This document shows positions 3 to 39,050 of a stretch of 45,298 nt of DNA, in pieces. Under the pieces are notes generated by a model. That model saw only the letters and a program-made list of their open reading frames with translations. It was not told the origin of the DNA and did not search any database. Every line of letters starts with the position of its first letter. Position 1 is the stretch's first letter. A program made the translations under genes and the position numbers. The stretch is taken from contig CAZIRO010000003.1 of NCBI GenBank assembly GCA_964541595.1, positions 1-45,298 on the forward strand, written 5' to 3'. This DNA comes from an uncultured Acidobacteriota bacterium (GTDB lineage: Bacteria > Acidobacteriota > HRBIN11).

Positions 3-122
3 TGGCCGCTCAGCATGCCGTTAATCGTGGCCGCGCCGGACGAAATACTGCTGACCGCCCGCAGGATCCGCCGGGACGGTGGTATTGCGGGCACCGGCAT
101 CGCCTACCTCTCCCTGAGATGA
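3..122 (+). CDS. Possible 3' end of a CDS that starts left of the window (…PLIVAAPDEILLTARRIRRDGGIAGTGIAYLSLR*). No family recognised.
   Basis: The frame is open from the window edge to TGA at 120-122. Third codon positions are strongly G/C, like the confident genes here. It is too short to identify. Confidence 0.2.
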   Translation, partial: WPLSMPLIVAAPDEILLTARRIRRDGGIAGTGIAYLSLR

Positions 123-243: not shown

Positions 244-2151
244 TCACTTCATCGCGTGTACAGACACACGGGCACGATCCAGAACCCGATCCGGAGACTG
301 GACCAACTCACAGACAACCGTTCGCGCAGCAGACGACCAGTGAATTTCCCATCGGACCTGTTGATTGGGGACCACATCATGCGGTAAATCAAGCACGGTC
401 GCAGCCCGCGGATCGTTCTCCGAAAAACACCGAACCCGCACGGGATACGGAAAGTATTCGATATCTGCTCGATGCGGCCATACGACGTCGCCGGTATTCG
501 TTACACGCACCATGAGCCGCTGTGTTTCTGAGGCATCGTCCTGCACCCATGTCACCTGCCAGTGGGCCTGTACCTCTTCGGGGTCCAGAGGCGCCGGACA
601 GACATCGAAACGCAGCGGGATGGAGAGCAGGTGAACCCCCACATACCCCAATGCCCGGAACATCCGTTCGGCCTCGCCCGGATCCGGACGCTGCAGGCCG
701 AACGCGGGTACACGTGTCGGGGGCCAGCGTTCATGCACGTACCGTTCTATGGATAAGTGCAACCGGTGTGCCTGGTCCGGATAACGTACCGCAACGTTGT
801 GCTGCTCGCCGGGATCCCTGTCCAGATGGTATAACGCACCGCAACGCCATCGGATCCAGTACGTGTATTTCCACCGGCGTGTACGGATCGACCGTGTAGC
901 GTCTGCCATTAACATCACAAATGCACGCGACAGTCGGCGTTTCTCCGCATGCAGATGCAGGGGAATGCTATCGAACGGCACGAACGGCCAGCGGATTTTT
1001 GCAATGTTCAGCAGGGTGGCGTACAGGTCCACGAGCGAAACGAGTTCCTCATGTCGTTGATGGTGTCTCCAGGGGGGCCGGATGACCATCGGAATGTGCA
1101 GCATTTCGTCAAACGATACCATTCCGTGCATCCAGAACCGGTGTTCCCCAAACGCTTCCGCATGGTCCGCCGTGAGGATGATCCACGTCGTGCGCCCCCA
1201 GGGCTGTGCATCAATAAAACGCATCAGACGCCCGAACTCCCGATCCACCCAGCGCAAACCCGCGCGATAGTGTGCACGTAAAACGCGCCGCACTCTGGGT
1301 GGCACTCTACGGGGTTCGGTATGGATGATCTGGAACCGTCGTCGTATCTCGCTGTATGAAAGAAACGACCAGGACTCCCTGGGCGGTTGAAATGCCCACC
1401 CCGGTCCGCCGTACGGGGTATGCGGTTGAACAAAGTGAAGGTGCACGAAACACCGGTACCGGCAGACCGCCGGCAGGTCCCGAATGGCAACATCGACGAG
1501 AACATTCGGATACCATTTCGGCGTGTGCCGCGCGTGTGCATATTTGCCCAATTCCGGATGACGCACGTGAGCAAACCCCTGGGTCAGCAGAGTAAACGGA
1601 CTGAACGGTCCCGTATTCGCCGAAAGCACATAGGTCACATACCGGTGGCGTTGGAATAACTCGGCAAGCGTCACGTACGCCGGTGCCAGCAGGGGCTGCC
1701 GGGGATGGATACGATGGTGAAACGGTGTCTGACCGGTATAGAGCGACGCGATGGAGAGGGTTGTATTCGGCGCGGGTGCAAATGCACGGGTGAACACGTG
1801 CGATTCCCGGCAGAACCGCTCCACATGGGGCATGGACACCGGGCGACCCCGATGGTTTCCGCACGCCCTCGGGAACATGTCCCATCGGGCAGCATCGAAC
1901 GTGATCAACAGAATCCTTCGGGCAGGAGAAGACGGCACGCATGCCGTATTCAACAGCAGCGTAACAACCGCCAGCCCCACACCACGGATGTATATCCCTT
2001 CGATATACCGCAAACAGTCCATACCGATCGTTCGGAAAAGTGCGCGGTTTTCGGTGGATACACGATTCAACCTGTTGCGCCAGATCGCACGGATAGCAGC
2101 ACGAGAATGGCCGTTCCGTAAAAGCGTGTTTATCTTATATTGCCATCCCAT
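244..2151 (-). CDS. Sulfatase / alkaline-phosphatase-superfamily protein, membrane anchored, with a C-terminal extension of about 250 aa
   Basis: Motifs LLITFDAARWDMF and ILTADHAEAFGEHRFWMHG are typical of sulfatase-family (PF00884-like) enzymes. There is a hydrophobic N-terminal segment, GVGLAVVTLLLNT. The 744-aa track ORF runs upstream through the intergenic repeat, so I trimmed it to ATG 2151. ATG 2022 is an alternative start, and the more likely one if the promoter at 2132-2159 is real. Confidence 0.75.
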   Translation of the reverse strand: MGWQYKINTLLRNGHSRAAIRAIWRNRLNRVSTENRALFRTIGMDCLRYIEGIYIRGVGLAVVTLLLNTACVPSSPARRILLITFDAARWDMFPRACGNHRGRPVSMPHVERFCRESHVFTRAFAPAPNTTLSIASLYTGQTPFHHRIHPRQPLLAPAYVTLAELFQRHRYVTYVLSANTGPFSPFTLLTQGFAHVRHPELGKYAHARHTPKWYPNVLVDVAIRDLPAVCRYRCFVHLHFVQPHTPYGGPGWAFQPPRESWSFLSYSEIRRRFQIIHTEPRRVPPRVRRVLRAHYRAGLRWVDREFGRLMRFIDAQPWGRTTWIILTADHAEAFGEHRFWMHGMVSFDEMLHIPMVIRPPWRHHQRHEELVSLVDLYATLLNIAKIRWPFVPFDSIPLHLHAEKRRLSRAFVMLMADATRSIRTRRWKYTYWIRWRCGALYHLDRDPGEQHNVAVRYPDQAHRLHLSIERYVHERWPPTRVPAFGLQRPDPGEAERMFRALGYVGVHLLSIPLRFDVCPAPLDPEEVQAHWQVTWVQDDASETQRLMVRVTNTGDVVWPHRADIEYFPYPVRVRCFSENDPRAATVLDLPHDVVPNQQVRWEIHWSSAARTVVCELVQSPDRVLDRARVSVHAMK

Positions 2152-2159
2152 GGTGTCAA
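2132..2159 (-). promoter_or_regulatory. Putative sigma70-type promoter for the sulfatase-like gene (TTGACA-16 nt-TAAGAT)
   Basis: There is a perfect -35 TTGACA (reverse complement of 2154-2159). The -10 is weak: TAAGAT at 2137-2132. The promoter overlaps the alternative ATG at 2151. Confidence 0.35.
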
Positions 2160-2175
2160 ATACTGGTGGATCTGG

Positions 2176-2419
2176 GATCGGGAAATGGGACATGCGCACC
2201 ACCGGATCCACCGGTGTGCCGGTGGTCACCGGTCTCCGGTCCCGGATGGCGGGCATCAGGTCCCAGGTGTCAGGTGTCAGGTCCCAGGTGTTGGGTGTCA
2301 GGTATGCAGGTGTCAGGTATCCGGGACGGGAGACGGAAGACAGGGGACGGGGCATCGCATGGGCGGGGGATAGCGCATGACCGCATGGGGACCCACGGTG
2401 TCCCATGGCCTGTCCCGAT
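2176..2419 (-). repeat. TIR-bounded intergenic repeat, copy 1a, in reverse orientation relative to the copy at 24904
   Basis: It aligns by eye along its whole length with the reverse complement of 24904-25149. The right TIR is tgtcccatggcctgtcccgat (2399-2419). The left TIR, gatcgggaaatgggaca, lacks about 5 nt. An internal CAGGTNN heptamer tract lies at about 2257-2320. Confidence 0.85.
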
Positions 2420-2437
2420 TTCAGCTGGCGGATCCGG

Positions 2438-11590: not shown

Positions 11591-11666
11591 CGTTGTACCT
11601 CCATCAGCGGTTGCTCTGCATCATGGTAAAACAAACCCGCGCGGAGGGAAAGTCATACACACCCGA

Positions 11667-11861
11667 GATCGGGACAGGCAATGGGACAGGGGATGCGCCG
11701 GATGCGCGGATGGCCCATTCGGCCATGCGATGTCCCCATCCCGGAGATGCCGGTTTCCCTGAGACCTGGGACCTGAGACCCGACACCGGACACCTGAGAC
11801 CGGTGGCCACCGGCATATCGGTGCATCCGGTGCATCCCCTGTCCCACTGCCTGTCCCGATC
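11667..11861 (+). repeat. TIR-bounded intergenic repeat, copy 2
   Basis: It has 30-nt terminal inverted repeats matching 29/30: gatcgggacaggcaatgggacaggggatgc (11667-11696) against the reverse complement of 11832-11861. There is an internal heptamer tract at about 11758-11802 and an internal palindrome, ccggtggccaccgg. Confidence 0.9.
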
Positions 11862-11875
11862 GCGGAGCCACACCA

Positions 11876-11904
11876 TTGACCGCAGCGGGGATTGCGCATA
11901 AAAT
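11876..11904 (+). promoter_or_regulatory. Putative sigma70-type promoter for tRNA(CAU)/tilS (TTGACC-17 nt-TAAAAT)
   Basis: The hexamers and the 17-nt spacer were read directly. The -10 ends 18 nt before tRNA position 1. Confidence 0.55.
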
Positions 11905-11922: not shown

Positions 11923-11998
11923 GGCGGCATAGCTCAACTGGCAGAGCATGCGGCTCATATCCGCAGGGTTGGGGGTTCGAGTCCCTCTGCCGCCACCA
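11923..11998 (+). tRNA. tRNA with anticodon CAT: elongator Met, or Ile2 (the lysidine substrate). Not an initiator.
   Basis: A manual cloverleaf folds cleanly. The acceptor stem is GGCGGCA/TGCCGCC, the anticodon stem TGCGG/CCGCA, the anticodon loop CTCATAT, and the T arm GGGGG-TTCGAGT-CCCTC. The discriminator is A and the CCA end is encoded. A 1-72 G-C pair and the absence of a GGG/CCC anticodon stem argue against an initiator. Confidence 0.9.
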
Positions 11999-12021
11999 TG
12001 CGCGAATGCGCACGGATTTCA

Positions 12022-13410
12022 ATGCGTACGCTGGAAGACCGTCTCTGGCAGCAATTCCTGCGCAATCTTCGACGTTGCCGCATCCGCACCGGTTCACCCG
12101 TTGTGGTTGCCCTGAGCGGGGGACCGGATTCGACCGTACTTGCGTATCTCTTCCACCGCTGGGCGCAACATACCGATACCCCGATCGTTCTTGCGCATTA
12201 CATGCACCCATGGCCGGCGACTGCTGCCTGGGAAGCGACGGTCGCCGAAACGACCGCCCGGAAACTGCAACTCCCGCTGGAAACTGGCCGGGCGCCCCGT
12301 ACGCATCCGGGATCGCGCGTGTCTGAAACCGAACTGCGCCGCATGCGTATGGCGTTTCTCGTGGACGTCGCACATCGGCACCACGCGCAGGCCATTGCCG
12401 TGGGGCATCACCGGGACGATCAGGTGGAAACCGTGCTCCTGCGACTTGCACGGGGTGCAGGGCCTTATGGGCTGCGGGGGATGCAATGGCGTCAACCGTA
12501 TGATTCCACATGGCTGGTGCGCCCCCTGCTCAACGTTCCGGGAAGAGTTTTACGCATGTACGCGCACATGACGGGCATGCACGTGTTCATCGACCCGACA
12601 AATTGGGACGTGCGCATCGACCGTAACTGGATCCGGTACCGATTATTGCCATTACTGGAAGAGCGGTTTCCGCGTATTCGGTCCCACATCTGGCAACTGA
12701 CCCGCTGGCTTCAGCAGGACAACCGCGCACTCGTCTGGATCGTGCGCTCCCATATGGAGCACACCACGGACCGATGGTCCGTACGTGCATGGCGCCGGTT
12801 GCCCGTGGCACTGCGGGTACACTGGATTCGTATGGCGTACCGTCGCGTATGTCCCACCCGTCCGCTCGGGCGGGTGCACATTCGCGCGGCCATGCGACTG
12901 CTCATGCGTGACGGGGGGCACGGACGTCTGTTGCTCCCGGAAGGGGTCGAACTCTGGCGCGACGGTCCGGAATGGGGGTTGCGGTTGCGCGATACCGCAC
13001 CGTCGCCACCCCGACCGTGGACCGTTCCGTGGACCGGTGAAGGGGCTTTCGTGGACGGCAACGGACAGACATGGGTATTCACACGGAAACGGCGCGACCC
13101 CACATGGTCTACAGCGTGGCTGCGGGCCCGGGCGCAGCAGGGAGTGTGGTACCTTGACGCCGACGTTGTGCACCCCCCGGGAACGATCCGTACCTATCGC
13201 CCCGGTGACCGGTTTCAACCCCTCGGGACAGTTCAAACGGTGCGTTTACGGCGATTTTTCATTGCACGAAAATTACCGTATGATATGCGCAGGAGGGTAC
13301 CCATTTTAGAAACGGCACGGGGGATCGCCGCGGTGCTCGGTGTAGCGATCGCCGAGTGGGCCCGGGTGCAACCGCAGACGCAATGGGTTTGGGAGGTACG
13401 CCGTGCATGA
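12022..13410 (+). CDS. tilS: tRNA(Ile)-lysidine synthase
   Basis: The PP-loop motif VALSGGPDSTVL is present, the length is about 460 aa, and tilS-hpt-ftsH is a conserved gene order. The track start at 11998 overlaps the tRNA CCA end, so ATG 12022 is preferred, though uncertain. Confidence 0.85.
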   Translation: MRTLEDRLWQQFLRNLRRCRIRTGSPVVVALSGGPDSTVLAYLFHRWAQHTDTPIVLAHYMHPWPATAAWEATVAETTARKLQLPLETGRAPRTHPGSRVSETELRRMRMAFLVDVAHRHHAQAIAVGHHRDDQVETVLLRLARGAGPYGLRGMQWRQPYDSTWLVRPLLNVPGRVLRMYAHMTGMHVFIDPTNWDVRIDRNWIRYRLLPLLEERFPRIRSHIWQLTRWLQQDNRALVWIVRSHMEHTTDRWSVRAWRRLPVALRVHWIRMAYRRVCPTRPLGRVHIRAAMRLLMRDGGHGRLLLPEGVELWRDGPEWGLRLRDTAPSPPRPWTVPWTGEGAFVDGNGQTWVFTRKRRDPTWSTAWLRARAQQGVWYLDADVVHPPGTIRTYRPGDRFQPLGTVQTVRLRRFFIARKLPYDMRRRVPILETARGIAAVLGVAIAEWARVQPQTQWVWEVRRA

Positions 13411-21193: not shown

Positions 21194-22573
21194 TCACTTC
21201 GGGCGGCGGATGTTGTAGGCGCGGAGTTTGTTGAAGAGAGTGGCCCGGGAGATGCCGAGTTCCCGCGCGGTACGGTTGTAGTTCCATCCGGTCGCCATGA
21301 GTTTCCGCAAAATGGCTTCCCGCTCCGCGCGGGCGCGAACGTCCGCAAGAGTCAGTCGCTCTATCTCTTTTTTCTCTCCGTCGCGATCGGGTTCCTGCAC
21401 CAACCATCGGCGCAATTGTGCTCCTGTGACAGTTTCCCCAGGGTACAGAACACACAGTTTTTCCATCAAATTCCGCAGCTCCCGCACATTGCCCGGCCAC
21501 GCATACGCAAGCAGGATCTCCATTGCACTCGGATGCAGAGAGACGATCGGGATTTTTTTCTCGAATGCCAATACGGAGAGAAAATAGTCGACGAGCACCG
21601 GGATATCCTCGCGCCGTTCACGCAGGGGCGGCACGTGGATATGGATGACATTCAGGCGGTAATAGAGGTCCTCGCGAAACTGGCCTGTGTGTACGGCGTG
21701 GTGCAGGTCCCGATTGGATGCCGCAATGATCCGCACGTCTACCTGAATGGGTTTGCGTCCGCCGATGCGGTAAATGACCCCGTCTTCGATCACGCGCAGC
21801 AATTTCGCCTGCAGGCGCGGACTCATTTCCTCGATTTCATCCAGGAACAGCGTCCCGCCGTCTGCCAGTTCAAATTTACCCGGTCTCCGTTCGACTGCGC
21901 CGGTAAATGCGCCCCGTTCATGGCCGAACAGTTCGGATTCGGCGAGTTCTTCCGGAATCGCCGCGCAGTTGACCGGCAGGAAATGGCCGGCTGCACGCGG
22001 ACTGCGTAGATGAATCGCGCGTGCAATGAGTTCCTTCCCCGTACCACTTTCACCGGTGATGAGCACCCGCGCGTCTGTCGGCGCGACTTTTTCGATCACT
22101 TCAAAGATCTCCTGCATGGCCGGCGACACCCCGATCAGTCGATACTGCTGCATCGCGCGTTCCAGCAGAACGGCACGTTCCCGTTCCAATCGTGCCTGGT
22201 GGAGCGCATTGCGCAGAGCAATGAGGATGCGGGACGATTCCACGGTCTTTTCCAGGAAATCGAACGCGCCGAGTTTTGTGGCCTCCACCGCGCGCGCGAT
22301 TGTCCCGTGACCGGACAGGATGAGCACCGGCAGTCGTGGCCATCGGGCTTTCATATGTTGCAGCACTTCCATGCCATCGATGTCGGGCAGCACGAGATCG
22401 AGAATCACCGCATCCACATCAGTCCGTTCGAGCACAGCCAGTGCTTCCCGACCCGTCAGGGCGGCAACTGCGGCATATCCCTCATCCTCCAGCAGTTCCG
22501 ACAACATGCGCACGACTTTCGGATCGTCGTCCACGACGAGTACGGTCACCCGTCGCATGTCCCGCACCCTCAC
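21194..22573 (-). CDS. Sigma54-dependent response regulator (NtrC-family enhancer-binding protein)
   Basis: It has a receiver domain (VLVVDDD…D…K), an AAA+ domain with GESGTGKE and the GAFTGA loop (ERGAFTGA), and a C-terminal Fis-type HTH (NRTARELGISRATLFNKL). The GTG at 22573 overlaps the kinase stop as GTGA. ATG 22558 is an alternative start. Confidence 0.9.
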   Translation of the reverse strand: MRVRDMRRVTVLVVDDDPKVVRMLSELLEDEGYAAVAALTGREALAVLERTDVDAVILDLVLPDIDGMEVLQHMKARWPRLPVLILSGHGTIARAVEATKLGAFDFLEKTVESSRILIALRNALHQARLERERAVLLERAMQQYRLIGVSPAMQEIFEVIEKVAPTDARVLITGESGTGKELIARAIHLRSPRAAGHFLPVNCAAIPEELAESELFGHERGAFTGAVERRPGKFELADGGTLFLDEIEEMSPRLQAKLLRVIEDGVIYRIGGRKPIQVDVRIIAASNRDLHHAVHTGQFREDLYYRLNVIHIHVPPLRERREDIPVLVDYFLSVLAFEKKIPIVSLHPSAMEILLAYAWPGNVRELRNLMEKLCVLYPGETVTGAQLRRWLVQEPDRDGEKKEIERLTLADVRARAEREAILRKLMATGWNYNRTARELGISRATLFNKLRAYNIRRPK

Positions 22574-24756
22574 ACGGGGAGACGAATAACAACTCGCGTG
22601 CCAAACCCCGCGCGACTGTGGACCGCAATACGGCCCCCATGGGCCTCAATGATCCGGCGAGCGATGGTCAGCCCGAGTCCCATACCATCACGTTTCGTCG
22701 AGTAATACGGATCAAACACCCGTGGGATATCTTCTGCGCGAATGCCGCATCCGGTATCTTCAATCTCGATAATCACGGCACGCCGCTCACGCCTGAACCC
22801 GTATACCGGCGTGATCGTCACCCGCAGGTGACCGCCGTCCGGCATGGCTTCGATCGCGTTGTCAAACAGGTTCGCCAGCGCGTCGTTCAGGAGTTTTGGA
22901 TCACCCCGAATGGTCACGGGCTCCGGGGCATCTATGGAAAATTGAATCCGGTCCTGCAGGAATGACGTGTACCGCGTGAGAAGGTCTTGCAAAAGATCGT
23001 TCACCACGACTTCCTGATGTTCCGGGACGTGGGCAACAGATACAAGCATGAGACGTTGCAGATCACGTCGCAGTCTGCGCGTGTCTTCCAGCATCGAGGT
23101 TGCGATATCCATCAGCTTCTGTCGGGAAAATGGACCGTTCAGCACACGGTGCAGCCGTTCAATGGACCACAACAGGGTGGCCAGCGGTGTTTTCATCCGG
23201 TGTCCGATTTCCTGCATCATCCCCAGTGATTGAAGCCATTCCCCTCTCTGCCGCGCATGTTGTTTCCGAATGGGGCGAACGATCGCCATTGCGCTGAATC
23301 CGACCAGCCCATTGATCAGGGCAAACATCAGCACGTACACCCACCCCGCGTTGCGAAAAAACACCGCAATCTGATGGTATCGACTCGGCTTTTCAGGGCA
23401 GAAAACATATATTCGTCCATCCGCATTCACCACTGCACAACGCCGATCGCGATGGCGCATGAAGTACATCGTTCGCATGATACGTAAATCCGAACGGATT
23501 CGTTCGGGCAATGTCTGGGACCACTTGATCTGCATGTCCCGATCAAACACGAGCAGACGCGTCGAGGTCAGTGCCAGGATGTATGGCAGTGATATGGCAC
23601 TGTTTTCACCGCCGATCAGGCTCACGGGTTCCGCAACAGAGACCGAACGGATGACGCGCAGTTGAGCATCCAGCATCCAGATCTTGCCCCGATCATCGCC
23701 CACGACAATGCGAGGATAGTCAGCATGTGCCAGCACGTATGGCGCAGAGAACGAAACCCCCGTTTGCGTGATACATTTGCGCGCACGTCCTGTCAAACTA
23801 TCCAGGACACAGATCCTTCCGGGTTCAGGGGATATCGCGCGATGACATGAAAGTGTAACAATCACCTCCTGACGATAATCGCCATCCAGATCGGCCGTTG
23901 TGAACATGAGCATGGTATACCACATCCCGATCTGACGGATCCAGCGAATGCGCCCATCACTGTCCAGGACAATCACATAACTGTAGGCGTCATCTGTTCC
24001 GTTGGCGCGCACACCGTTATTCGATGCGAATGTGGACACAATGACTTCCCGGGCACCGTCGCCATCGAGATCCGCTATTTTCCACTGCCAGGGCATCGAC
24101 CCCATGGGGAATTCCCAGCGAAGTTGCCCCGTTGCCAGGTCATACGTCGCAAGCCCCCGTGGATATTTCTTCCACGCTGAATGCACCACAATGGTTAACC
24201 ATGTCGCAGCGTCATCGTTCAAGCCCCAGACGATAGGTGCCACATTATATCTGCGGGATCCCTGCATAAAGTTCGGGTATTCGAGTCGGACCAATCCCAC
24301 GTCGTCCTGATTTCCTCGAATCGTACGAAGGATCAACCCATGCCTGGAAAGCTCCAGAAACCGGTACTGAATATGTCGGTGCGCCGGATCCAGGTGCGCG
24401 TCGACGAAGATATACGATTCCGGTACCAGGATCTCAGAAAAATTCGGTGGTATGTATCCGGGGGCGAAAGGCTCTTCCGCCCCAACCACATTATACCCGG
24501 GCGGGTCTCCTGCCGGCGAGACGTATACAAGTTCATCCTCGCCATCCCGATCGACATCGAACGCATGCACATAGTGCGCTGCAAACCTGTACGCCACCTG
24601 CTGGACCCGCAACCTCGTCCGGGGTACAACTACACGTCGCCAGTACGCCCAGGCCTGCCAGATCAATACCCCGTTGAGCACCGTAAGCAGAAACAGCACC
24701 ACAAAAAACCGCGCACGCATCCTCTTATGGGTAAATGACAGAAATACATGTTCCAT
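22570..24756 (-). CDS. Sensor histidine kinase with a large FG-GAP/VCBS-type beta-propeller-like extracytoplasmic domain
   Basis: The H-box is EIGHRMKTPLATL, and the ATPase domain carries the N, G1 and G2 boxes (NLFDNAIEAM, EDTGCGI, GMGLGL). Repeated DxDxDG motifs (DVDRDGEDE, ADLDGDGAREV, ADLDGDYRQEV) lie between two TM segments. The track ORF (to 25167) reads through the repeat, so I trimmed it to ATG 24756. ATG 24720 is an alternative start. Confidence 0.85.
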   Translation of the reverse strand: MEHVFLSFTHKRMRARFFVVLFLLTVLNGVLIWQAWAYWRRVVVPRTRLRVQQVAYRFAAHYVHAFDVDRDGEDELVYVSPAGDPPGYNVVGAEEPFAPGYIPPNFSEILVPESYIFVDAHLDPAHRHIQYRFLELSRHGLILRTIRGNQDDVGLVRLEYPNFMQGSRRYNVAPIVWGLNDDAATWLTIVVHSAWKKYPRGLATYDLATGQLRWEFPMGSMPWQWKIADLDGDGAREVIVSTFASNNGVRANGTDDAYSYVIVLDSDGRIRWIRQIGMWYTMLMFTTADLDGDYRQEVIVTLSCHRAISPEPGRICVLDSLTGRARKCITQTGVSFSAPYVLAHADYPRIVVGDDRGKIWMLDAQLRVIRSVSVAEPVSLIGGENSAISLPYILALTSTRLLVFDRDMQIKWSQTLPERIRSDLRIMRTMYFMRHRDRRCAVVNADGRIYVFCPEKPSRYHQIAVFFRNAGWVYVLMFALINGLVGFSAMAIVRPIRKQHARQRGEWLQSLGMMQEIGHRMKTPLATLLWSIERLHRVLNGPFSRQKLMDIATSMLEDTRRLRRDLQRLMLVSVAHVPEHQEVVVNDLLQDLLTRYTSFLQDRIQFSIDAPEPVTIRGDPKLLNDALANLFDNAIEAMPDGGHLRVTITPVYGFRRERRAVIIEIEDTGCGIRAEDIPRVFDPYYSTKRDGMGLGLTIARRIIEAHGGRIAVHSRAGFGTRVVIRLPV

Positions 24757-24903
24757 TCTATTCCGAAATGAACGTCTCTTCCATCCCGGACTGGTTTCCT
24801 CGGGATCGGCACGGGCAGCCGAATACGAGAACACAAATATCCGATCGACGCAGAGGACAGTTCCATCACGTTCATCCACAGCGCAAAAGCCCGTTCCTGA
24901 AAC

Positions 24904-25149
24904 CGGGACAGGCCATGGGACACCGTGGGTCCCCATGCGGTCATGCGCGATCTCCCGCCCATGCGATGCCCCGTCCCCTGGCTTCCGTCTCCCGTCCCGG
25001 ATACCTGCCACCCGACACCTGGGACCCGACACCTGACACCTGGGACCTGAGACCTGGGACCTGAGACCTGTCACCCGACACCGGAGACCGGTGGCCACCG
25101 GCACATCGGTGGATCCGGTGGTGCGCATGTCCCATGGCCTGTCCCGATC
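24904..25149 (+). repeat. TIR-bounded intergenic repeat, copy 3 (reference copy)
   Basis: It has perfect 19-nt TIRs: cgggacaggccatgggaca (24904-24922) and tgtcccatggcctgtcccg (25128-25146). The internal heptamer tract at about 25010-25090 holds roughly 11 units. The palindrome ccggtggccaccgg is present. The 8-bp direct repeat cgttcctg flanks the element at 24892-24899 and 25154-25161. Confidence 0.9.
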
Positions 25150-25161
25150 CCAACGTTCCTG

Positions 25162-25190
25162 TTGCATATCCTGCAGATGCCGCCTATAAT
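25162..25190 (+). promoter_or_regulatory. Putative sigma70-type promoter of the rplM-rpsI operon (TTGCAT-17 nt-TATAAT)
   Basis: A consensus -10 and a 4/6 match at -35 with optimal spacing. It lies 265 nt upstream of rplM. Confidence 0.6.
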
Positions 25191-25286
25191 TGGATACGAA
25201 TCCCGCCGTGATCTCATGGATGCAGTTCTATCCCGACACGGGAAGGCTATATTACGTGGTCTACTGTCCGAAAAGGGGCATCATGA

Positions 25287-25356
25287 AGTGACGCGGAGTG
25301 ACGGCAGTGACGGGGTCGTCCGGCTGCGGGCGGCTCCGTCACTGATGATTTCTTTG
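25287..25356 (+). promoter_or_regulatory. Leader structure upstream of rplM: three tandem AGTGACG boxes and a terminator-like hairpin with a T-rich tail
   Basis: AGTGACG occurs at 25287, 25297 and 25306. The hairpin cagtgacgg…ccgtcactg (25305-25344) has a 9-bp perfect stem and is followed by atgatttctttgt. Confidence 0.4.
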
Positions 25357-38350: not shown

Positions 38351-38638
38351 CTATTCTTTAGTAAAAATCAACTGCTTGATCGCGTGTTTGTATACAATAC
38401 GAATCTCGTCGCGCAGTAAAACGGTAATGGTGAACTGATCCTCCCGGAGCAGCACCACCTGCAGGGTTTCGCCGGACATCATCTCCAGCAGAATGGGCTT
38501 GCGGGTGTCGATAGCCTGGCGGACCAGACTGTGGAATCCGAATTGCGGGTTTCCGGCTGCCGGATAGCCCCCAGGTGGTCGAAACACCTTCTTCTGGGCG
38601 GGACGCTTACCACCCCCTGGTCCCGTTGGCTGTGCCAT
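38351..38638 (-). CDS. hfq: Hfq-like Sm-fold RNA chaperone with a Gly/Pro-rich N-terminal extension
   Basis: The Sm2-like motif IVYKHAIKQL (compare YKHAIS in Hfq) is preceded by a segment LLEMMSGETLQVVLLREDQFTITVL, resembling the Sm1 strand. RBS gggagggg. Confidence 0.7.
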   Translation of the reverse strand: MAQPTGPGGGKRPAQKKVFRPPGGYPAAGNPQFGFHSLVRQAIDTRKPILLEMMSGETLQVVLLREDQFTITVLLRDEIRIVYKHAIKQLIFTKE

Positions 38639-38691: not shown

Positions 38692-38720
38692 AGTATATTT
38701 CTCTGCTTTCGATTTGTCAA
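38692..38720 (-). promoter_or_regulatory. Putative sigma70-type promoter for hfq (TTGACA-17 nt-TATACT)
   Basis: A perfect -35 and a 5/6 match at -10 with a 17-nt spacer on the minus strand. The 5' UTR contains the hairpin atgcagtacaccactgcat. Confidence 0.6.
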
Positions 38721-38735
38721 AGATTCTTTGGTGAA

Positions 38736-38899
38736 ATCGGGACGGGAAATGGGACATGAGAACCACAGGATCCACAGGTGTGCCGGTAGCCACCGGTCTC
38801 AGGTCCCGGGTGTCGGGTCTCAGAAAGACCAGCATCTCATGGGCTGGGGATAGTGCATGACCGCATGGGGACCCACGGTGTCCCATTTCCTGTCCCGAT
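38736..38899 (-). repeat. TIR-bounded intergenic repeat, copy 4a (short version, reverse orientation)
   Basis: It has 21-nt TIRs matching 20/21: atcgggacgggaaatgggaca (38736-38756) against the reverse complement of 38879-38899. The interior is collinear with copy 1a but holds only about 4 heptamers. Confidence 0.85.
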
Positions 38900-38915
38900 T
38901 TCAGTTCATTCGCGG

Positions 38916-39050
38916 GATCGGGACAGGGGATGCACCCCCACGGGTGCCCTATCGGCCATGCGCTATCCCCGACCCATAAGATGCCCGTCTCCGGTCTCCC
39001 GTCTCCGGTCTCCCGTCTCCCGTCTTCCGTCTCCCATTCTCCATTACCGC
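38916..39050 (+). repeat. Partial repeat copy 4b (left half only) with an expanded GTCTCCS heptamer array
   Basis: gatcgggacaggggatgc…ggccatgcgctatcccc is homologous to the left half of copy 2. It is followed by 7 tandem heptamers, cgtctcc/ggtctcc (38986-39034). No right TIR is present. Confidence 0.7.

Follow-up and report, generated by a model that had tools for sequence, protein, structure and literature searches.

The 45,298-nt stretch of DNA analysed here (hereafter the window; contig CAZIRO010000003.1 from an uncultured Acidobacteriota bacterium) carries a previously undescribed family of real miniature transposons, known as MITEs (miniature transposable elements with inverted repeats). 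The reading that best fits our results, and that we consider probable, is that these elements integrate just upstream of sigma-70-type promoters. Their precise placement relative to the -35 box, the repeated use of the same sites, and the independence of the host promoters from the element make this more than one further repeat family among many.

By its gene content, the window (~59% G+C) is an unremarkable piece of bacterial chromosome: it includes rpoC, rplM-rpsI-rpsB-tsf-pyrH, and tRNA(CAT)-tilS-hpt-ftsH-folP, as well as a two-component system, sulfatases, and further housekeeping genes. It contains one repeat family in four full copies (c1 to c4) and two truncated copies (c1b and c4b), or about 1 copy per 7.5 kb. 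All six had been reported at about these coordinates in a preliminary description of this DNA; the positions were roughly right, but the ends were drawn too short, as conservation runs 5 nt further on each side (CTGRR...YYCAG). The pattern ATCGGGACRGGNNNNGGGACA has eight matches in the window at ≤2 mismatches, compared to 0.02 expected from shuffles. Copy c1 matches the reverse complement of c3 in two stretches (96% identity over 116 nt and 86% over 119 nt), and c2 and c4 share 79-89% identity with c1/c3. The architecture is a module A, a variable-number 7-nt microsatellite (the heptamer tract), and a module B, enclosed by terminal inverted repeats (TIRs). With corrected ends, the copies are as follows:

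2172-2424, plus strand: full copy c1, 253 nt; module A left, heptamer tract, module B right; its left TIR has a 4-nt internal deletion.
2434-~2497, plus strand: truncated copy c1b; an intact TIR, then a 13-nt tandem duplication; adjoins the right duplication of c1.
11663-11865, minus strand: full copy c2; B-like module left, module A right; inverted arms reach 49 nt.
24897-25153, minus strand: full copy c3; module B left, ~11 heptamers, module A right.
25003-25089: heptamer microsatellite inside c3, of CCTGRGA and CCYGACA units.
38731-38904, plus strand: full copy c4; module A left, short heptamer tract, module B right.
38912-~39040, plus strand: truncated copy c4b; a TIR minus one GGGACA box, then a B-like module and (CCCGTCT)x7; no second end.

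Tandem Repeats Finder places 7-nt tracts at 2256-2318, 11758-11801, 25003-25089, and 38984-39035, and the 13-nt tandem duplication in c1b is perfect (2471-2498, GGATCCACTCAAT x2.2). The elements have no coding capacity, and all open reading frames (ORFs) that cross them are spurious. Inflated ORF calls had been suspected for a sulfatase and a kinase, and indeed the mechanical minus-strand ORFs run through c1 (sulfatase, 244-2478) and c3 (FG-GAP histidine kinase, 22570-25167); on an identical ENA contig, the gene call for the kinase starts 411 nt further downstream than the first ATG of the ORF, at window position 24756.

Outside the window, the module-A pattern was found on 53 contigs (217.6 kb), all in one JGI metagenome, Ga0256841. 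These contigs share only the elements with the window, and their outer flanks are unrelated. The Ga0256841 contig L130 is 99.87% identical, without gaps, to contig L129 from ENA ERZ27262647, and two further ERZ27262647 contigs (L067 and L128) are 99.97% and 100% identical to the window. Altogether, this indicates that the Ga0256841 metagenome holds the same species as the window. The search for further copies that the preliminary description had proposed therefore bears out a multi-copy family, with more than 50 more copies in a metagenome of this species. Of the 53 pattern matches (L068-L120), about 15 lie within ~130 nt of a contig end, which suggests that the repeat fragments the assembly and is a major cause of breaks for this organism. 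Among the matches listed (66, single) for a 21-nt TIR pattern in the genome contig collection, none was a real copy by BLAST; viral contigs (IMG/VR) gave 0 matches, and PLSDB and a phage database gave no match.

The element ends are sharply defined. Our set of full copies numbers 39 and is biased towards module A, since retrieval demanded that module. At both ends of these copies, the TIR follows a 26-nt consensus, CTGRRATCGGGACAGGNNATGGGACA, ending ...CAG, with two GGGACA boxes per TIR, 12 nt apart. The two boxes had been recognized before; the TIR length, previously given as 19-30 nt, becomes 26 nt with the corrected ends. Across 116 termini aligned with their flanks, the terminus reads 5'-CTG(G/A)(G/A)ATCGGGACAGGNNATGGGACA, the opposite end reads ...CAG-3', and sequence conservation halts abruptly at CTG/CAG. 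The paired GGGACA boxes are presumably transposase binding sites.

Between the TIRs, module A (...TGCGCACCACCGGATCCACCGGTGTGCCGGTGGCCACCGGTCTC...) carries the palindrome CCGGTGGCCACCGG and module B contains ...CCGTGGGTCCCCATGCGGTCATGCGCTATCCCCAGCCCATGCGATGCC...; the order A-heptamers-B is kept in 34 of the 39 full copies, and a third module, C, is present in three. The internal features listed in the preliminary description, namely this palindrome, the block GGCATCGCATGGGCGGG...CCGCATGGGGACCCACGG, and the 7-nt tandem tracts, were all found. Full copies measure 165-422 nt and form a ladder in 7-nt steps (174, 181, 188, 195, 209, 222, 229, 236/237, 244, 258, and 265), which points to heptamer copy number as the chief length variable. 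The heptamers CCTGGGA, CCTGAGA, and CCCGACA resemble the outermost TIR hexamer, CTGRGA. Within c3, the CCTGGGA and CCTGAGA units (25003-25089) contain CTGRGA, oriented like the B-side terminus, and the tract may be derived from, or mimic, the element ends. One metagenome contig (L103, 1033-1089) has a 57-nt mini-element that is hardly more than two facing TIRs; it may be a minimal mobilisable unit or a deletion product.

Many copies are flanked by target-site duplications. Based on the CTG...CAG boundaries, perfect 5-9-bp direct repeats flank 13 of 38 TIR-paired copies, and the signal is lost if the boundary is moved by even one base. Allowing one mismatch at ≥7 bp, duplications are found in 23 of 38 full copies (7 bp in 12, 8 bp in six, 9 bp in three, and 6 bp and 5 bp in one each). 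When left and right flanks of different elements were swapped, the mean fell to 0.05, and none of the 1000 trials gave more than one. Two further full copies, on contigs fetched by a six-frame query with the elements' "spurious peptide," have perfect 7- and 8-bp duplications. Within the window, the flanks of three full copies match to different degrees:

2163-2171 (left, CTGGTGGAT) and 2425-2433 (right, CTGGCGGAT): duplication of c1, 8/9 match.
24892-24896 (left) and 25154-25158 (right): duplication of c3, CGTTC.
Flanking 7-mers ttctttg and ttcattc: c4, 5/7 match.

An 8-bp repeat, cgttcctg, had been described around c3. The duplication itself is real, but it is CGTTC, with the CTG belonging to the element's own end; the c3 allele on L067 has the canonical CCCAG end followed by a CCGTTC duplication. 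The earlier statement that the other copies lack a clean duplication holds for c2, where none was found, but not for c1; the c4 flanks match at five of seven positions. With the corrected boundaries, the duplications indicate that the elements are genuine non-autonomous transposons. Their size, lack of coding capacity, TIRs, duplications, and many dispersed copies at unrelated loci are those of MITEs, and we regard a genuine MITE family as very probable.

The flanks carry promoter motifs at a fixed distance from the element end. We counted the 91 termini without a neighbouring element; an offset that varies by 1-2 nt blurs the per-position information content of unaligned flanks, and the signal emerged from tallied motif positions. 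An outward TTG starts at +10, +11, or +12 in 18, 15, and 6 termini, respectively (39/91), compared to ~1.05 per position at +25 to +61, and 31 have a TAnnnT that begins at +33 to +35. The aligned flank logo is TTGC[ACG][TA]-N17-TA[AT]AAT. Outward matches to TTGnnn-16..18-nAnnnT (score ≥8/12) occur at 36 of the 91 termini versus 1.44 in shuffled flanks, and in 28 of these 36 the -35 box lies at +10 to +12. Thirteen cases combine a duplication with a promoter, and in 10 of them exactly 3 nt separate the duplication from the TTG, which suggests that the +10/+11/+12 spread mirrors duplications of 7, 8, and 9 bp; the same 3-nt gap holds at the independently retrieved loci L129 and L131. On the same contigs, nAnnnT follows 16-18 nt after TTG for 35 of 42 element-adjacent TTGs (83%), compared to 17.7% of other intergenic and 11.6% of coding TTGs. 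By their motifs, element-adjacent TTGs appear to be real -35 boxes, not stray trinucleotides. Such a TTG is found on at least one side of 27 of the 39 full copies, facing end A in 18/39 and end B in 9/34 (p = 0.09). In the window, end A of all four full copies adjoins such a putative promoter:

2132-2159, minus strand: c1 promoter TTGACA-16-TAAGAT, serving a sulfatase; the -35 box begins 3 nt past the c1 duplication.
11876-11904, plus strand: c2 promoter TTGACC-17-TAAAAT, 10 nt past end A; tRNA(CAT), tilS, hpt, ftsH.
25162-25190, plus strand: c3 promoter TTGCAT-17-TATAAT; rplM-rpsI-rpsB-tsf-pyrH; the -35 box begins 3 nt past the duplication.
38692-38720, minus strand: c4 promoter TTGACA-17-TATACT, 10 nt past end A; faces an Hfq-like ORF (38351-38638).

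An independent consensus scanner calls three of these four (c1, c2, and c4); the rplM promoter escapes it, since TTGCAT agrees with TTGACA at just 3/6 positions. The four full-copy loci in the window all lie between divergent genes, in agreement with the preliminary description. Over the whole set, with genic context taken from a rough codon-usage gene caller, the intergenic regions that hold element clusters are divergent in 13 cases, tandem in 15, and convergent in 4, and no cluster lies convincingly within a gene. The elements are thus not found at promoters alone.

The same sites have been used repeatedly. Nine end-to-end doublets have both termini intact, separated by spacers of 6-9 nt, i.e. 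one duplication length. Two doublets are in the window: c1|c1b, with a 9-nt spacer that is the right duplication of c1, and c4|c4b, with a 7-nt spacer. In eight of the nine doublets, a promoter stands beyond the full copy's outer end, at the duplication plus 3 nt. This geometry is expected if a second element reaches the first one's promoter-defined site, and random insertion with later selection would hardly account for it.

We propose that a trans-acting transposase encoded elsewhere would bind the paired GGGACA boxes and cut at CTG.../...CAG, and that the element would be inserted through a staggered target cut of 6-9 bp. The promoter-proximal cut would be placed 3 bp upstream of the -35 hexamer in a promoter of sigma-70 type (TTGCNN-17-TAnnnT), which would keep the promoter intact, with the element end 10-12 bp away from its -35 box. 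If the same site were hit again, back-to-back doublets one duplication apart would result. That most copies stand at the 3-bp offset from the -35 box suggests that the transposase takes promoters as landing marks, and we think it likely, though a little less firmly than we hold the reading as a whole, that insertion is actively directed to promoters. Recognition could work by direct reading of -35/-10 DNA or by contact with promoter-bound RNA polymerase/sigma. More tentatively, and with more doubt than belief, we suggest that the transposase recognizes the promoter itself, not merely TTG, by contact with polymerase/sigma-70 or by -35/-10 reading, and integrates at about -38/-39, the upstream edge of the polymerase footprint.

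The strongest competing explanation is an ordinary MITE with a short target preference, roughly AA-NNS-[N7-8]-SNN-TT(G), where -35 boxes fit by chance and other insertions have been purged by selection, with no recognition of the promoter as such. Both flanks do have a weaker, partly symmetric target preference, with S at +1 (39/46) and T at +4 (31/46) and +5 (28/46) in the target logo, and the enrichment of T at +4 extends to sides that have no TTG. However, a short target preference does not account for the correctly spaced -10 motif at 83% of element-adjacent TTGs versus 18% of other intergenic TTGs, as intergenic TTGs outside promoters should be no more harmful as targets. Nor does it account for the same 7-9-bp site being hit repeatedly in nine doublets. 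We therefore consider this explanation unlikely, yet better placed than the other alternatives below.

Several points weigh against integration upstream of promoters, and some of them favour the ordinary MITE. Plain sequence preference together with selection against harmful insertions could account for part of the signal. A recognisable promoter at the fixed distance is absent from 10-12 of the 39 full copies, about a quarter to a third, and four element clusters lie between convergent genes. The flanking sequences are taken to be promoters from their motifs. Every copy belongs to a single species, and it was the module-A pattern that fetched the metagenome contigs. Duplication lengths of 5-9 bp are an unusual range for a single DDE transposase, and neither the window nor 59 related contigs yielded a transposase or an autonomous partner.

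A second alternative is that the elements are co-opted regulatory cassettes, in which the GGGACA boxes, centred near -57 and -69, would serve as binding sites for the alpha subunit of RNA polymerase or for an activator of the host, and copies would be kept by selection for tuning the adjacent promoter. The fixed phasing to the -35 box would fit this, as would the housekeeping promoters that the elements adjoin (rplM, a tRNA, and an hfq-like gene). However, selection cannot produce the 3-bp offset unless insertion is targeted, so that regulation would be an added layer at most. A related contig speaks to the same question: L121 (ERZ23495063 scaffold_86486, 2.2 kb; 95% L13 identity) retains an intact rplM promoter, TTGCAC-17-TATAAT, preceded at 1-175 by at least 23 heptamers, compared to ~11 in the window, and the contig breaks inside the tract. 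Module A of this element is gone, leaving only a TIR remnant. This suggests that the rplM insertion is old, that the tract is unstable, and that the promoter-proximal TIR is dispensable for the host, which argues against the TIR being kept as a regulatory site. In addition, c4b has lost one end, and copies also occur at promoter-free sites. We judge the cassette explanation quite improbable.

Far less probable still is that the promoters are part of the element, making it a MITE with outward-firing promoters of the Correia or BrickBuilt type. Consensus promoters do read outward from many ends, but the duplication separates the conserved element end from the -35 box, and copies are unrelated in the promoter spacer, around the -10 box, and further downstream. 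The -35 and -10 boxes, which stand outside the duplication, likewise lack conservation from copy to copy. Orthologous promoters are also found in element-free HR11-like relatives, with TTGCCA-17-TATACT before rplM on L124 and TTGACG-17-TAATAT before tRNA(CAT) on L126. We rejected promoters as an element component, a reading that is already largely refuted; judged by these sequence comparisons, the promoters belong to the host.

Just as remote are palindromes of the REP/BIME type spread by a RAYT (IS200/IS605-like) enzyme, or a family of structured noncoding RNA genes: the elements are abundant, intergenic, and G+C-rich, with internal palindromes and stable folding, but they have staggered duplications, 26-nt TIRs with CTGRRATCGGG termini rather than a GTAG-type head, sizes of 165-422 nt, and positions upstream of the flanking promoters, from which they would thus not be transcribed. 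Folded as single strands, they exceed shuffled sequences in stability (z = -3.2 and -11.6), which is explained by the TIRs. Rfam 15 matched only the tRNA at gathering score over the whole window and nothing at E ≤ 1 on 24850-25250, so the Rfam check suggested in the preliminary description turned up no described RNA family at the c3 region. Based on the duplications, the TIRs, and the lack of an Rfam match, we rejected both the REP and the noncoding RNA readings. The family had earlier been called MITE-like or REP-like; the MITE-like, non-autonomous, TIR-bounded character stands, while the REP-like label fails on the duplications, the long TIRs, and the lack of a GTAG-type unit.

From the TIRs and staggered duplications, we infer a DDE-type transposase. 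The CTG ends and 7-9-bp duplications would presumably fit several insertion sequence (IS) families; candidates for the parent family are, for example, IS4/IS10, IS1595/IS1016, IS256, and ISAs1. The preliminary description saw no transposase in the window, and domain searches of the window proteins agree, with no transposase domain found; a RAYT (Y1 transposase) gene is also absent from the window. Among the contigs, there is no inward TIR pair 0.8-3 kb apart in the right orientation. The unannotated ORF beside c1b encodes a polytopic membrane protein, and the ORFs beside solo TIRs encode SpoVR, DUF444, PrkA, and SpoIIE-type proteins.

By L13 (82%), the nearest named relative of the window organism is "bacterium HR11," which is unclassified at NCBI, and the nearest TilS homologues, in the HR11 group, are only 58% identical. 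GTDB contains an Acidobacteriota class HRBIN11 (PMC11778308), to judge by its name presumably based on the HR11 genome, which tentatively puts the organism close to Acidobacteriota. In an empty-site comparison, the abhydrolase adjoining c4 had no record elsewhere. The HR11-like relatives (65% G+C) lack this family, and their intergenic regions carry other repeats: L124 (3784-3837, 11151-11187, 12080-12140, and 20053-20091) and L126 (3560-3830) have arrays of 8-mers similar to GGGCAATA, runs of the heptamer GGTNCCN, and an inverted pair around ...CACGGGGTATGCAT. These may represent a different, distantly related MITE family.

Three neighbouring features in the window deserve a brief description. 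The tRNA(CAT) gene (11923-11998) lies directly upstream of tilS (11998-13410), with a promoter in common, and this arrangement is kept in L126 (3462-3537 and 4001-5569, TilS 58% identical); the tRNA may be tRNA-Ile2, the TilS substrate, rather than tRNA-Met. The ~265-nt leader between the rplM promoter and start contains a G+C-rich hairpin of 18 bp and then a stretch rich in T (25305-25354), which could be a ribosomal-protein leader or attenuator; it matched no family at Rfam gathering score in the whole-window scan, the looser E-value scan having covered only 24850-25250. The ORF facing the c4 promoter (38351-38638, minus strand; 95 aa) has a Pfam Hfq match barely at threshold (27.2 vs 27 bits) over its C-terminal two-thirds.

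By inserting at a constant 3 bp upstream of -35 hexamers, bacterial transposons would gain a safe haven of a new kind. Genes and promoters are spared, yet a variable microsatellite and putative protein-binding repeats are placed where upstream promoter elements and activators act. If the promoter itself proves to be recognized, no bacterial transposon family before this one would be known to take promoters as an exact safe-haven landmark that can be used again, in a prokaryotic parallel to the targeting of yeast Ty3. The cognate transposase, if found, would make it directly testable how transposases read chromosomal landmarks, and it could possibly serve as an enzyme for marking promoters or inserting cargo there. 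For practical work, these repeats break metagenome assemblies, and masking the family would improve gene calls and binning in this lineage.

Among known systems, the elements are like other prokaryotic MITEs, such as the Neisseria Correia elements and MITEAba12 (PMC10969869, PMC6382973), in being small, non-coding, multi-copy, intergenic, and presumably mobilised in trans, in having TIRs and duplications, and in inflating ORF calls. They differ in that the duplication is 6-9 bp, not TA, and in that the promoters are not carried by the element; compared specifically to the Correia element, which duplicates a TA target, the duplications here are 5-9 bp of varied sequence. The section on insertion sites in a 2024 review of prokaryotic MITEs describes none with a fixed offset to host promoters (PMC10969869), and a full-text literature search, whose incomplete coverage makes this absence of evidence, found no promoter-offset MITE either. 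BrickBuilt of Porphyromonas gingivalis (PMC4596501) similarly is strictly intergenic and has a tandem array of variable repeat number between a "leader" and a "tail," with small inverted ends, but its unit is 23 nt rather than 7 nt, it has promoter elements inside, and no fixed -35 distance is reported for it. REP/BIME/REPIN-RAYT repeats (PMC2817692) are likewise abundant, G+C-rich, palindromic, and extragenic; however, they are 20-40-nt units without duplications, typically after genes and linked to RAYT, and none of this is seen here, RAYT being absent from the window.

Pneumococcal BOX elements are also modular, with a variable number of internal units, but lack 26-nt TIRs with duplications. 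Cyanobacterial STRR sequences are intergenic heptanucleotide tandem tracts that are not known to have 26-nt TIRs with duplications. In eukaryotes, the retrotransposons Ty3 and Ty1 of yeast and TRE of Dictyostelium integrate precisely upstream of transcription units via RNA polymerase III factors and so spare genes; they share a concept with the family here and have no known mechanistic or sequence relationship to it. For fixed-offset targeting, the closest analogue would be the ISAjo2-related group of the IS1202 family at dif/pdif (PMC10132070), compared by description, not sequence. Those are autonomous 1.5-kb IS with the XerC/D site as landmark, but like the elements described here, they have 24-26-bp TIRs, sit at a constant offset (5 bp) from a host-protein binding site, and make use of a safe haven again and again.

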